This document shows, one piece after another, positions 1 to 11,154 of a stretch of 64,000 bases of DNA (position 1 is the first letter of the stretch; the number at the start of each line of letters is the position of its first letter). The stretch spans positions 1-64,000 of IMG/VR virus record IMGVR_UViG_3300005613_000025; one strand, 5' to 3'. This DNA comes from a virus. The notes beneath the pieces were generated by a model that saw only the letters and a program-made list of their open reading frames with translations, did not search any database and was not told the DNA's origin. Both the position numbers and the translations under genes were made by a program.

Positions 1-289
1 ATTGTGCCAAAGATTGGTCCAATAATCAACATTCACTATGTCCATTCTTTTAGTGAGTTCTCTACCCTGTGATGTTATACTGCCTGCTACATACTCATTG
101 AATAGTATGAAGTAGGGTGTTGCAAGGGCACCATAAGTTCCATTCAATACATTTTTGTCCCCACCTACGAATAGGTGGGGACAATCAAACTAACTTCAGA
201 GCCAATTGCATGGCGTTGTAGTAATCAACGTCCTTCTTTAACTCCGAAGCCTGTTTTTTCAATTCCTTTATTTTTTGCTTCTTGTCCAA
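1..289 (-). CDS. Family B DNA polymerase, C-terminal (fingers/palm) subunit of a split gp43-like gene; interrupted by a 40-nt gap at 148-187 and running off the left edge
   Basis: TTG at 289 opens MDKKQKIKELKKQASELKKDVDYYNAMQLALKLV, then TGA. After the gap, a different frame (147..1) reads LNGTYGALATPYFILFNEYVAGSITSQGRELT. Joined, they give QLALKLVLNGTYGAL...SITSQGR, which is PolB motif B (KxxxNxxYG). Not in the ORF track. Confidence 0.88.
148..190 (-). other. Candidate programmed translational bypass element
   Basis: Minus strand: GTT(190-188) TGA(187-185) TTGTCCCCACCTA-TTCG-TAGGTGGGGACAA(184-155) AAAT GTA(150-148), then coding resumes at TTG AAT GGA. Confidence 0.65.
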
Positions 290-365
290 TTTAATATTTT
301 ATTTTTTAATTATATTCTAAGGGGAACTTATTGTTTTTATATATAAATAAAAGTTCAATAGTTAT

Positions 366-1505
366 ATGATAAAAGAAAAAAAAGTTAATGTAAAGATAGG
401 ATTAAGAAATATCTCACATTATCGAGACATGGGTTATGATGTTTCAGTTATAAATGATGATAATAAAATATTACCAGTTTCGGTACATGATGTTCCAAGA
501 AAATCAAAGATTCGAATCACTGCGATATGTGAGTTGTGTGGTTCTGAGCGTTCAATACAAATGGTCAAGTATTGGGCAAATCACGATAGATATGGTTTTT
601 ACTCTTGCTTCAATTGTAAAAATGTTAAGAAGGAAAAGACAAATTTGATAAAGTATGGAGAGAAGTCATATTCTAAAACTGAAGAGTTCAAAGAAAAGTT
701 CAAATCAACATGTTTAGATAGGTACGGTGTTGATAATCCAAATAAATTAAAATCTGTCAGGAGAAAGATAGCAGATACTTGTGAGTCAAAATATGGTGTG
801 TCTTCACCATTATTACAAGAGTCTGTTATTGAAAACAATAAGAAGTGGATGTCATCTCAAGAATTCAAGGACAAGTCAAAGAAAACACTTATTGAGAAGT
901 ATGGTGTTGATAGCTTTTCCAAGACAGATGAATTTAAGAAAATGTTACAGGACAAGAAAGAGGAAATTGTTGATAAAATAAAGAAAACATTCAATGATAA
1001 ATATGGATTTGACCATTATTCACAGACAGACCAATTTAAGGAAGATTACCTATCTAAGATTGATGAGATAGGTGAGAAAAGGATTGAAACTTGTTTGTCA
1101 AGATATGGTGTTGATAATGTGGCTAAAGTAAATGAATTTATGAAAAAAACGATAGCTACAAAAATTGAACGAGGTCTTATATCAGATGGTGATGATGAGT
1201 GGATAAAGTATAAGAAAAAGGTTAGGAGAATTACCAATAGGTTCAAAAAGGAATTATTCAATAGATGGGAAGGATATGATTATTATGATGATGAGTATAT
1301 AAAAGAAAATTTCAGATTTTCACATACACATCGATACTATCCAACAATCGATCATAAAGTAAGTGTCTTCTATGGCTATCAGAATAACATTGATGCATCA
1401 GTAGTAGGCCATATTGATAATCTATGCATAACAAAAAGATATATAAATTCAATCAAGAGAGCAACTATTGATTCGGAATTTATTTCACACCGAACATCCC
1501 TATAA
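366..1505 (+). CDS. Putative HNH homing endonuclease with Zn-ribbon and KYGVD-type repeats
   Basis: CxxC...CxxC, repeated (K/R)YGVDN/S units, C-terminal TIDHK...NLCITKRYINS HNH-like motif. Confidence 0.7.
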   Translation: MIKEKKVNVKIGLRNISHYRDMGYDVSVINDDNKILPVSVHDVPRKSKIRITAICELCGSERSIQMVKYWANHDRYGFYSCFNCKNVKKEKTNLIKYGEKSYSKTEEFKEKFKSTCLDRYGVDNPNKLKSVRRKIADTCESKYGVSSPLLQESVIENNKKWMSSQEFKDKSKKTLIEKYGVDSFSKTDEFKKMLQDKKEEIVDKIKKTFNDKYGFDHYSQTDQFKEDYLSKIDEIGEKRIETCLSRYGVDNVAKVNEFMKKTIATKIERGLISDGDDEWIKYKKKVRRITNRFKKELFNRWEGYDYYDDEYIKENFRFSHTHRYYPTIDHKVSVFYGYQNNIDASVVGHIDNLCITKRYINSIKRATIDSEFISHRTSL

Positions 1506-1572: not shown

Positions 1573-3768
1573 ATGAAACCCGTACTAATTGTAGAGAACT
1601 CAACAAATGGTCTGACATTGAACGAATCGTCTAAATCAGACGATAGATATACACTTGGAGGTATATTCACTGAATTCGGAATTAAGAATCGAAATGACCG
1701 TGTTTATACTGCTGAGAAGTTCTTGCCAGCTTTGAATGAGTTGAATGAAAGAATAAATCAACTTGGTGTTGTATATGGTGAATTTGACCATCCAGATGTT
1801 TTCGATACTTCTTTATCAAGAGCATCTCACATCATCAAATCAACAAGTTATATTAAGGAACACAATCGTGTTGAAGGTGAGATAAAACTGCTTTCAACTT
1901 ACTGGGGTAAAGAGGCCAAATCATTGGTAAATGATGGCTGTCCAGTATTTGTTTCTTCTCGTGCTGCCGGTATCACAGAATCGGATGGCTCAGTTTCTCT
2001 TAAGAAATTATTCACTTATGATATAGTTGCTGATCCAGGATTCGGATCTGCTAAGATGCATGTTAAGTCAATTAACGAGTCTCTTGGATATGGTTCGAAC
2101 ACCAATTTCAGGATCTATGAAATGAATGATGAATCAAAAATTAATGAACTATTCGATATGAACAAAAATGAATTTGTAACAAAAACACAATTGACAGAAT
2201 ACTCAAAGTATCTGGTCAATGAGCTGGCTTCTACAAAGAAAGAAGTAAAATCAGCACTTACGAAAGGTGATCTTACACCTAAAAAATTGGAACAACTACT
2301 TGAGTATTACGAGGAGTTGAATGCAACTAACTCAAAAATGGTCAAGTATCTTGATTACTTGGCTGAGAAGGTTCAGGTTGTTGTCAATGAGAACAAGTCT
2401 CTTGCTAAGAAGACTGATAAGATCATCGAGCACAATGATTACTTGGCTGGAAATCTTGAAAAGTCTATCAATTACTCTGAGTATTTGGCAGAAAAATTGG
2501 ACAAGAACATCGAGTATTCTGAGTATATCGCTGAGAATCTTGACAAGTCTATTTCTTACGGAGAATACTTGGCTGAGAATCTTGACAAGTCTATTTCTTA
2601 CGGAGAATACTTGGCAGAGAACTTGGATAAGAACATTGCATACTCTGAGTATTTGGCAGAGAATTTGGATAAGAACATTGCATACTCTGAGTATATCGCA
2701 GAAAATCTTGACAAGTCTATCTCTTACGGAGAATACTTGGCAGAGAATTTGGATAACTCGATAGCTTACTCTGAATATTTGGCAGAGCATGTTGAGGGTA
2801 ACATTGCATACTCTGAGTATATCGCAGAAAATCTTGATGACAATATTGCATACTCCGAGTATGTTGCTGAGTCGCTAGACAAATCTATTTCTTATCAATC
2901 ACTTATTGTTGAAAAACTGAATGGTGGAAAACTTAACGAAAGTTATGGTGAGGAAGGAATGATGCTTCCAACACCTGAGGATATGGGTTTTGAAACATAT
3001 GATGAAGAAGAAGAGGTAGAGGAAGTTGAAAAAATGGGTGATGAAGGTACATACCCATCAAAAGAAGAGACACCACAAGTTGGTTGTGATGTTTCTGAGG
3101 AAGAAGAAGCTCAAGAAGAAGATGAAATGGAAGTTTCTGAGTCTTCAGATGAGCAAGTAATCAAAGACATGGATTCAGAAATGAAGTCCGAAGAAGAAGA
3201 TGAAGAAGAAGGTGAAGATGAAGAAGAAGCTGAATATGTAGGTGAATCAGACTCTGAACTTTCACAATCTATAGATAAATTGATCAAGGAAGCTAAAAAA
3301 CGAAAAGTAGCTGAAACAACAGATCTACACTTTTTAAAGTTCTTGAACAAATCACAGGTCGATAGTTTCTACTCTCTTACAAATGAGGAGCAAGAAACTG
3401 TTAAACTTCACATAAACGAAAGAAGTTTCTACTCTACACAGGATGTATTGAAGTTGATCTCTGAGGCGTTGAGCACTAAAAACGAATCTCTTGATGAAAG
3501 AGTAATCAGATTGATGCCGGAAAACATTAAGCCGATCTGGAACCAGTTGAACGAGAGCACTCGAAAGTCAGTCCTTTCACAGGCAAGACTTTATCCCGAA
3601 GAAGTACTTATGAATGAATCACAGGTAGAACACTTCTGGATGACGAGAAATCTCAAAAAGAACGAATCTGTAACTAAAAAATTGGTATCACACGACTCGT
3701 TGGTACAGGAAGACAAACTTTCTGACAATGAAGTGAAATCGATAATGGAAAGATTCAAAAACCTTTAA
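1573..3768 (+). CDS. Prohead protease (T4 gp21-like) fused to a coiled-coil repeat and acidic scaffold-like region
   Basis: KNRNDRVY, GEFDHP, VSSRAAG and YDIVADPGF motifs; directly upstream of the capsid gene. Confidence 0.9.
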   Translation: MKPVLIVENSTNGLTLNESSKSDDRYTLGGIFTEFGIKNRNDRVYTAEKFLPALNELNERINQLGVVYGEFDHPDVFDTSLSRASHIIKSTSYIKEHNRVEGEIKLLSTYWGKEAKSLVNDGCPVFVSSRAAGITESDGSVSLKKLFTYDIVADPGFGSAKMHVKSINESLGYGSNTNFRIYEMNDESKINELFDMNKNEFVTKTQLTEYSKYLVNELASTKKEVKSALTKGDLTPKKLEQLLEYYEELNATNSKMVKYLDYLAEKVQVVVNENKSLAKKTDKIIEHNDYLAGNLEKSINYSEYLAEKLDKNIEYSEYIAENLDKSISYGEYLAENLDKSISYGEYLAENLDKNIAYSEYLAENLDKNIAYSEYIAENLDKSISYGEYLAENLDNSIAYSEYLAEHVEGNIAYSEYIAENLDDNIAYSEYVAESLDKSISYQSLIVEKLNGGKLNESYGEEGMMLPTPEDMGFETYDEEEEVEEVEKMGDEGTYPSKEETPQVGCDVSEEEEAQEEDEMEVSESSDEQVIKDMDSEMKSEEEDEEEGEDEEEAEYVGESDSELSQSIDKLIKEAKKRKVAETTDLHFLKFLNKSQVDSFYSLTNEEQETVKLHINERSFYSTQDVLKLISEALSTKNESLDERVIRLMPENIKPIWNQLNESTRKSVLSQARLYPEEVLMNESQVEHFWMTRNLKKNESVTKKLVSHDSLVQEDKLSDNEVKSIMERFKNL
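2431..2892 (+). repeat. About 11 coding tandem repeats of 42 nt (14 aa, YxEYLAENLDK(S/N)Ix)
   Basis: Visible in DNA and protein; no spacers; wobble-position variation. Confidence 0.95.
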
Positions 3769-10781: not shown

Positions 10782-11154
10782 GGGGGCGTTTTGGCATTTG
10801 ACTCATAATGTTGAAAGGTTATCATGCAGGTATCGGTTTGTTAGTTTCCGATCATAAAAAATTGACATTTTAAGTAAACGGCAACGTTTCAACAGAAGTA
10901 GGAAACAGTGAAGATGTAGTAGCTGTCCTACAAAACAACTTGCTCGAGGTAAGAGAGCTTGAAGTAGCTTAATTGACACTTCATAAATCACTTCCGCTGA
11001 GTCACAACAGGTAAAAAGTGTGATAGTTTTTGTTGGTCTTTTTTGAGTCGAAAAACCAAATATTTTGTTGAATTTTGAAAAATTCTCCTAAACCTGTGAA
11101 CGAGTGATGTCGGTCAGTTATGAACACGAGGGTTCGAGTCCCTCCGCTTCCACC
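10782..11154 (+). ncRNA. ssrA: tmRNA
   Basis: 5' GGGGGCG pairs with 3' CGCTTCC-ACC (G3-U70); T-arm GAGGG-TTCGAGT-CCCTC; internal tag ORF 10880-10972; smpB is in the same window. Confidence 0.92.

Follow-up and report, generated by a model that had tools for sequence, protein, structure and literature searches.

A probable programmed translational bypass element in motif B of a split family B DNA polymerase gene of a megaphage

Among bacteria and their phages, to our knowledge, ribosomes are known to bypass long stretches efficiently in essentially a single evolutionary lineage, that of T4 gene 60 and its homologues in topoisomerase genes. In the mitochondria of Magnusiomyces capitatus, "byp" elements of 27 to 55 nt, which Lang et al. 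are said to have described in 2014, reportedly occur in dozens of copies across many genes, and "fractured genes" with split inteins and homing endonucleases were reportedly described by Dassa et al. in 2009; T4-like phages also include examples with split polymerase genes, 43A and 43B. Gene 60 cassettes have been found only in the topoisomerase genes of myoviruses, and their common features are a codon pair that may differ at the wobble base, a take-off site followed by a stop or hungry codon, a stem-loop with a stable loop, and a 5' stem-loop; the cassettes carry an N-terminal extension, and the nuclease is occasionally lost or replaced (Manning and Atkins, bioRxiv 10.1101/2022.08.31.505936). 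Hairpins that stimulate frameshifting have been reported to block the ribosomal A site (Bao et al. 2020, PMC7282821).

The stretch analyzed here (the window) covers the initial 64 kb of an IMG/VR fragment of 91,722 bp (IMGVR_UViG_3300005613_000025), and near its start the only gene for the C-terminal half of a split family B DNA polymerase (PolB) contains 40 nt that are probably a programmed translational bypass element, similar in function to gene 60/mobA and not homologous to it; there are no protein data, and the RNA data are weak. As in T4 gene 60, where 50 nt are bypassed and the nuclease is mobA, an essential replication enzyme is encoded in pieces and the downstream piece has a noncoding gap after 30 to 46 codons; take-off and landing codons match, with wobble allowed, and the former is followed by a stop or poorly decoded codon. 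Both systems also have a stem-loop closed by a stable tetraloop, which is UUCG in the window, and a 5' stem-loop upstream of take-off, and in both the cassette brings an N-terminal coding segment and adjoins a homing endonuclease (putative in the window), which can be lost from a locus that retains the gap. The differences are that the host gene is PolB, at motif B, rather than Topo2L, that the nuclease belongs to DUF7487 with no match to MobA, and that the gaps are 36 to 48 nt long (40 in the window) at five codons, compared with about 50 nt at one or two codons; there is also no evidence of Shine-Dalgarno (SD) use and no sequence homology. The hairpin lies past the take-off codon in most versions, not around it, and the likeness to the gene 60 hairpin drawn in the original prediction has to be qualified, as here the hairpin starts 3 to 6 nt past the take-off codon and does not contain it. 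In its inferred function the PolB element resembles gene 60, yet it falls outside the gene 60 family.

The other systems share fewer features with this locus. Like the byps, these gaps are short GC-rich hairpin inserts in an AT-rich genome with matching codons and an adjacent stop or unassigned codon, but the PolB hairpin is unique in 92 kb, is confined to one site, is linked to a homing endonuclease, and operates in a bacterial-type system. The polymerase is divided by mobile nuclease elements, as are split and fractured phage polymerases, but fractured genes are solved at the protein level, whereas the PolB gap has no intein and has to be resolved by the time the message is translated. With the A-site-blocking hairpins it shares a stable stem-loop positioned slightly downstream of the codon being decoded, at which the ribosome is expected to stall, although the PolB gap needs a jump of 36 to 48 nt rather than a 1-nt shift. 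A full-text literature search found no report of bypassing in a polymerase gene, nor any report of DUF7487.

The source fragment has a CheckV completeness of 16% and a GC content of 32.7% over its 92 kb, and is derived from a megaphage with a genome of roughly 0.6 Mb. The closest named relatives are the huge phages LR745206, LR756502, LR756501, LR756503, and LR756504 (0.63 to 0.74 Mb), with the Lak phages as distant relatives, and the window stretch occurs in 20 runs from 15 studies of aquatic, marine, and estuary origin. The long open reading frames (ORFs) of the window are open under code 11. No tRNA genes were found in the window, and there is a phage tmRNA gene (10782 to 11154, plus strand) with the tag peptide VLQNNLLEVRELEVA (ARAGORN). 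An SD-like motif precedes only 5 of 78 long ORFs on the whole contig, and because this is rarer than the background of 11%, it points to a host with SD-independent initiation, for example a member of the Bacteroidota; we know of no test of bypassing in a host of this type.

The family B polymerase is encoded by two genes across the whole clade. The N-half (contig positions 75,049 to 76,563, plus strand, outside the window and corresponding to L004:400-1914) codes for 504 aa with an exonuclease domain and motif A, and has as neighbors a ParB-like ORF (motif DGHHR) and a TnpB-like fragment on the opposite strand. The C-half, of ∼474 aa, is tens of kilobases away from the N-half, starts ∼34 to 38 codons ahead of motif B, and contains both KxxxNxxYG and DTDS, completing the set of family B features. 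The first 70 residues of the C-half profile align to motif B of solved family B polymerases, placing the conserved motif B lysine in the segment upstream of the gap (exon 1). Motif B is uninterrupted in the four complete genomes LR745206, LR756502, LR756501, and LR756504, where it reads KLVLNGSYG (e.g., AAA TTA GTA TTA AAC GGA). In an insert-bearing relative that is 98% complete (483 kb), a single N-half gene is accompanied by a single C-half gene, which is the interrupted one, and no second C-half exists in that genome; the original prediction would have taken another intact polB as the sign of a pseudogene.

The anatomy of the gap can be read directly from the letters of the window, with all of its features on the minus strand. 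Exon 1 of the C-half (188 to 289) has 34 codons from a TTG (289 to 287) to the take-off codon and encodes ...YYNAMQLALKLV, including the motif B lysine. It is homologous to the first 37 to 38 codons of uninterrupted C-halves, and there is no in-frame ATG in the window, such that a TTG or ATT start is assumed. The short, lysine-rich upstream peptide had been likened to the nascent-peptide signal of gene 60, but it is simply the normal N terminus of the C-half and is equally lysine-rich in uninterrupted relatives. The take-off codon GTT (Val, 188 to 190) is preceded by AAG TTA and followed immediately by a TGA stop (185 to 187), which opens the 40-nt gap (148 to 187); the rest of the gap is the hairpin (155 to 184), an AAAT spacer (154 to 151), and the landing codon GTA (Val, 148 to 150), which is the first GUN triplet past the hairpin. 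The hairpin has a perfect 13-bp stem (184 to 172 with 167 to 155), with a C-run in the 5' arm and a G-run in the 3' arm, and a UUCG loop (171 to 168). Exon 2 (1 to 147) starts with TTG AAT GGA ACT TAT GGT (LNGTYGAL...) in a different frame and is open to base 1, where it is cut by the contig end. Removal of the 40 nt from 187 to 148 restores KLVLNGTYG, which is motif B, and a rereading of positions 1 to 300 bears out every letter of the minus-strand sequence, the skip, and the restored motif as first described.

Exon 1 of the window also contains a 5' stem-loop (187 to 256, minus strand) in which the arm at 256 to 238 pairs with the arm at 205 to 187, the latter taking in the take-off GTT and the first base of the stop, and between the two helices just two bases of the TGA, its G and its A, are left unpaired. 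Positions 120 to 230 have a fold z-score of -4.6 and positions 140 to 262, in which the upstream stem is included, one of -7.1, and a further fold of the 5' stem-loop gave a z-score of -3.7; the 30-nt hairpin is expected 0 times in shuffled sequences, and the structure is not due to chance. No second copy of the hairpin and no similar GC hairpin was found in the 92-kb contig (∼16% of the genome), which rules out a dispersed repeat within that portion, and an exact search of IMG/VR for the hairpin returned only the window's own record. An Rfam search of the gap region gave no match (best E value of about 7). An intrinsic terminator on the sense strand was also ruled out, as A-rich sequence follows the hairpin.

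The 40-nt insert is not an assembly artifact. An independent JGI metagenome contig, L089 (2,421 nt), has a gap identical to that in the window, with few, mostly synonymous, differences upstream of it, and DNA contigs of run X2 contain a variant hairpin whose C/G run is longer and whose loop is CATG, which settles the doubt about assembly raised at the outset. Because the window begins at a contig end that cuts the gene, the downstream frame was read from L089, where exon 2 is complete (1970 to 642, minus strand) with 443 intact codons, YADTDS, and a conserved C terminus; the intact downstream frame with motif C on which the original prediction relied is thus present. A contig from run X1 reaches 1,625 nt past the window start. 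No contig crosses the hairpin in X1 or X15, but these absences are uninformative because palindromes break de Bruijn assemblies. A contig from the X16 RNA library (169 nt, depth of 2) spans positions 131 to 299 unbroken, hairpin included, and is a weak hint that the gap is retained in RNA, as it extends just 17 nt past the 3' junction, which is below the 31-nt bridging rule, and DNA carryover is possible. In all 32 of the first-found insert-bearing loci, the downstream frame is open and the C terminus conserved, and these patterns strongly support an interrupted polymerase gene that is needed and alive.

An IMG/VR scan with the C-half profile yielded 80 loci, of which 37 carry an insert within one 27-nt stretch, and comparison of the 27 distinct versions, including the window's, demonstrates that the gap is conserved. 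The gaps are placed at five codons of motif B and have lengths of 36, 38, 39, 40, 41, 42, 43, 44, 46, and 48 nt, thus occurring in all three phases; together with loci L050 and L051, whose gaps differ by a single G, this means that neither frameshifting nor read-through can serve as a general solution. Leucine is the most common site (14 versions, CTT, CTG, or CTC at take-off and CTA at landing), followed by alanine (5 versions, GCT to GCA or GCT), tyrosine (4 versions, TAT or TAC with no Tyr triplet at landing), valine (3 versions including the window's, GTT to GTA or GTT), and serine (1 version, TCT to TCA). Take-off and landing codons specify the same amino acid in 23 of the 27 versions, over four amino acid sites. 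The Leu take-off codon is always CTN (14/14), compared with 10 of 18 uninterrupted genes, and the Leu landing codon is always CTA. For the 22 first-found versions, the landing codon is without exception the first cognate triplet past the hairpin in any frame. The third base is mostly T at take-off and A at landing, from which we infer that the pattern would suit a tRNA with U34 that is weak on NNU and firm on NNA.

The four Tyr-site versions (L022, L023, L029, and L062, around positions 2575 to 2730 of these loci) have gaps of 39 to 48 nt after the Tyr of NGSYG (48 nt in L022, 39 nt in L023, and 42 nt in L029). The triplet ahead of GGA is AAC, AGC, or GAC, with which the Tyr anticodon can pair at positions 2 and 3 only, and in L022 the hairpin reaches over the take-off codon itself. 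A stop codon lies 0 to 1 codons past take-off in 19 of the 22 first-found versions, and there is no early in-frame stop in the other three; TAA, TAG, and TGA all occur. Substitutions in exon 1 among insert-bearing loci are concentrated at third codon positions, which indicates that exon 1 evolves as coding sequence. The cassette-borne exon 1 also has residues of its own (S at -14 and SE at -8/-7), and their codons are those that form the 5' stem.

The RNA structures are common to the insert-bearing relatives, in which, as would be expected if the original prediction holds, the gap recurs within motif B, flanked by matched codons and with stems that covary. The base of the gap hairpin is 5 to 6 nt past the take-off codon in the relatives and 3 nt past it in the window, where the stem is two pairs longer. 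Stems are 10 to 13 bp with loops of 4 to 6 nt, always with the C-run first and the G-run second, and an A-rich spacer of 4 to 10 nt separates the hairpin from the landing codon; this variable distance fits codon scanning rather than a cut measured from the structure. Up to six pair types are seen at stem positions 5 to 9, all 16 non-Watson-Crick pairs in the hairpin are G.U in the mRNA sense, and the gap region folds at -20.3 kcal/mol in the sense orientation compared with -17.3 kcal/mol in the antisense. The second, longer stem-loop is inside exon 1 of every insert-bearing gene, and the mean folding energy of the last 69 nt of exon 1 is -19.3 kcal/mol, compared with -7.7 kcal/mol in uninterrupted genes. 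Its 3' arm extends as far as the take-off codon or takes it in, with a register that tracks the site, whether Ala, Leu, Val, Ser, or Tyr. Among 19 Ala- and Leu-site versions, 87% of cells are paired and 7 of 13 pairs have compensatory changes, whereas none of 500 shuffles match, slid registers give 30 to 43%, and the same columns of insert-free genes give 45%. Some of the compensatory changes alter amino acids (ELKK to ELQR in L044 and SE to NQ in L049), and since pairing is maintained at the cost of amino acid changes, it is the RNA and not the peptide that is being kept. Judged by this covariation, both the gap hairpin and the 5' stem-loop are under selection as mRNA structures. In L024 (2494 to 2603), the gene is uninterrupted and exon 1 still makes 10 of the 13 pairs of a cassette-type 5' stem, and the gap may have been lost after invasion. 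The G-run of the hairpin is 5 to 9 nt ahead of the landing codon, but the genes of the window phage do not use SD sequences. That spacing would fit a G-rich 3' arm acting as an SD landing aid, but the idea was set aside because so few of the long ORFs have SD-like leaders relative to background, and a gene 60-like landing aid of this kind is doubtful in the window phage.

Divergent from the polymerase gene and 76 nt from the start of exon 1 is a putative free-standing homing endonuclease gene (366 to 1505, plus strand) coding for a 379-aa protein of Pfam family DUF7487. It matches PHROG families named "homing endonuclease," and Pfam and PDB searches recognized no catalytic domain in it. A contig from run X1 joins position 337 to position 1485 with two other letters between them (338 to 1484 missing), and a phage variant without the DUF7487 gene thus coexists in that sample. 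Of 25 assessable insert versions, 18 have a homologue at this position with this orientation, compared with 0 of 17 uninterrupted versions from the near clade, and the gap is kept without the nuclease in seven versions, as also happens with mobA. In independent contrasts, the nuclease and the insert change in the same direction in ∼5 of 8 and in opposite directions in ∼0, with a median sign-test p value of 0.06, a figure constrained by how many contrasts there are. On the polymerase tree, the insert state has a scattered distribution that requires at least 9 to 12 changes; the tree was rebuilt without intein-bearing rows, which had formed an artifactual long branch. At the nucleotide level, homology to uninterrupted sister loci begins right after the gap and returns upstream of the nuclease, and pairs of cassettes are 90 to 94% identical in exon 1 and 72 to 73% identical in exon 2. 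These homology boundaries, the contrast between exon 1 and exon 2 identities, the scatter on the tree, and the nuclease linkage demonstrate, or at the least strongly support at the level of sequence comparison, that the mobile unit is a cassette of the nuclease gene, the divergent intergenic region, exon 1, and the gap, and that it has spread among related phages.

Other nuclease-associated features are present at these loci. L089 codes for a second, short DUF7487-like ORF (131 aa; 234 to 629, minus strand) that immediately follows the C-half gene. A further split, at motif C, divides the C-half in L047 (757 to 3595), L055, L057, L088, L050 to L052, L066, L068, L071, L076, and L077. In the L047-type arrangement, DTDS is followed by a segment that begins with C and ends with ...KILVLKTNIY, after which come a 366-aa nuclease-like ORF and then a piece ending ...VHN|SLFVSF; the arrangement resembles a fractured gene, in which the two halves of a split intein flank a homing endonuclease.

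How the gap would be passed can be set out for the window as a series of inferred steps. The ribosome would translate 34 codons and arrive with GUU (Val) in the P site and UGA in the A site, where the very stable hairpin would jam the mRNA entrance. Peptidyl-tRNA-Val would detach from GUU, and the mRNA would be drawn through, probably aided by the exon 1 stem-loop, and after it the gap hairpin, re-zipping behind the ribosome, until the tRNA re-pairs at GUA, the first Val triplet past the hairpin. Resumed translation would yield a single polypeptide with motif B (KLVLNGTYG) intact and with the predicted junction peptides ...LALKLVLNGTYGAL... and LVLNGTYGALATPYF.... The forward-drive idea follows a model argued for gene 60 (bioRxiv 10.1101/2024.12.09.627546). 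The gap also interrupts motif B DNA that is probably cut by the nuclease, such that the carrier would be protected, as in T4 mobA/gene 60. It is an inference that the ribosome, rather than an RNA-processing enzyme, omits the gap, as are the drive from stem re-pairing and the shielding of the carrier from its own nuclease, cleavage included. Ribosome hopping, the main inference of the original prediction, has gained support from the comparative evidence, although it remains an inference in the absence of protein data and with RNA data that are weak. The further suggestion that the gap ties DNA replication to translation status has no evidence behind it, and the linkage to a homing endonuclease explains the presence of the gap better. 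Several observations count against bypassing: the stems, with a ΔG of about -20 kcal/mol, would need to be melted or passed, the four Tyr-site versions have no cognate landing codon, and three versions have no early in-frame stop. The hairpin geometry unlike that of gene 60, the scarcity of SD sequences in the phage, and the missing ATG of exon 1 in the window count on the same side. The matched flanking codons could also be in part a footprint of the insertion mechanism.

The Tyr-site versions are the natural starting point for the idea that the gap is an ultra-short intron, in which the two helices mark 36 to 48 nt for excision by a phage or host endonuclease and an RNA ligase rejoins the ends, as excision needs no cognate landing codon; it also accounts equally for gaps in every phase, for downstream frames that stay intact, and for the conservation of the RNA structures. 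We consider it unlikely, though not excluded, as it does not explain why the flanks are synonymous in 23 of 27 versions, why Leu take-off is restricted to CTN, or why cognate triplets are missing ahead of the landing site, and it would have to place its 3' boundary at a variable distance from the hairpin. The length is moreover far below that of group I and group II introns, there is a single hairpin with no Rfam match, bulge-helix-bulge geometry is absent, and the RNA library contig, for what little weight it bears, keeps the gap. Were excision nevertheless correct, the gaps would be a new class of ultra-short (36 to 48 nt) mobile introns, excised and religated by an unknown enzyme pair, and if these are hops, landing at the Tyr site might occur by mRNA structure alone without a cognate P-site codon; we hold out only a slim chance for this pair of possibilities.

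An outcome with two polypeptides, in which a 34-aa peptide is released at the TGA, translation restarts past the hairpin, and the pieces assemble noncovalently as the N- and C-halves do, is made conceivable by a polymerase that is already divided into two genes and by the in-frame TTG after the landing codon in the window. It is nonetheless improbable to a high degree, since most versions lack an in-frame start codon after the gap (L047 reads CTA AAA TTA GTA TTA AAC), the break would fall inside one helix between the K and the N of KxxxNxxYG, and the matched codons and the site-tracking 5' stem-loop would be left unexplained. The feature is only 148 nt from the contig end and exon 1 has no ATG, as might be expected of a dead gene with a junk insert or of an assembly or chimera error, yet the identical gap in an independent assembly and related variants in other runs, the 27 versions with intact and conserved frames on both sides, and the status of the C-half as the sole copy in a 98%-complete genome leave very little room for either. 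Least credible of all is that the hairpin is decoded, with stop reassignment and a frameshift adding ∼13 residues within motif B; stop codons are recoded in some megaphages, including the Lak phages, but TAA, TAG, and TGA all follow take-off in different versions, the phases differ, the window genes are long and open under code 11, and residues added between the K and the N would destroy motif B.

If the bypass reading is true, this is a second, unrelated family, and selfish nucleases that enter essential genes can arrive at hopping as a solution more than once. The family would in addition provide dozens of natural variants, with five take-off codons, gaps of 36 to 48 nt, and two covarying helices, for models of bypassing, including those in which mRNA re-pairing behind the ribosome acts as the forward drive. 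Gene callers and completeness tools will label such megaphage polymerases as truncated or as pseudogenes.

A further ORF near the start of the window (1573 to 3768, plus strand) codes for a 731-aa protein with an N-terminal region resembling a prohead protease or scaffold, a long run of ∼14-aa repeats (YSEYLAENLDKSIS and variants), and an acidic tail; its start is covered at higher depth by RNA library contigs of X15 and X16.
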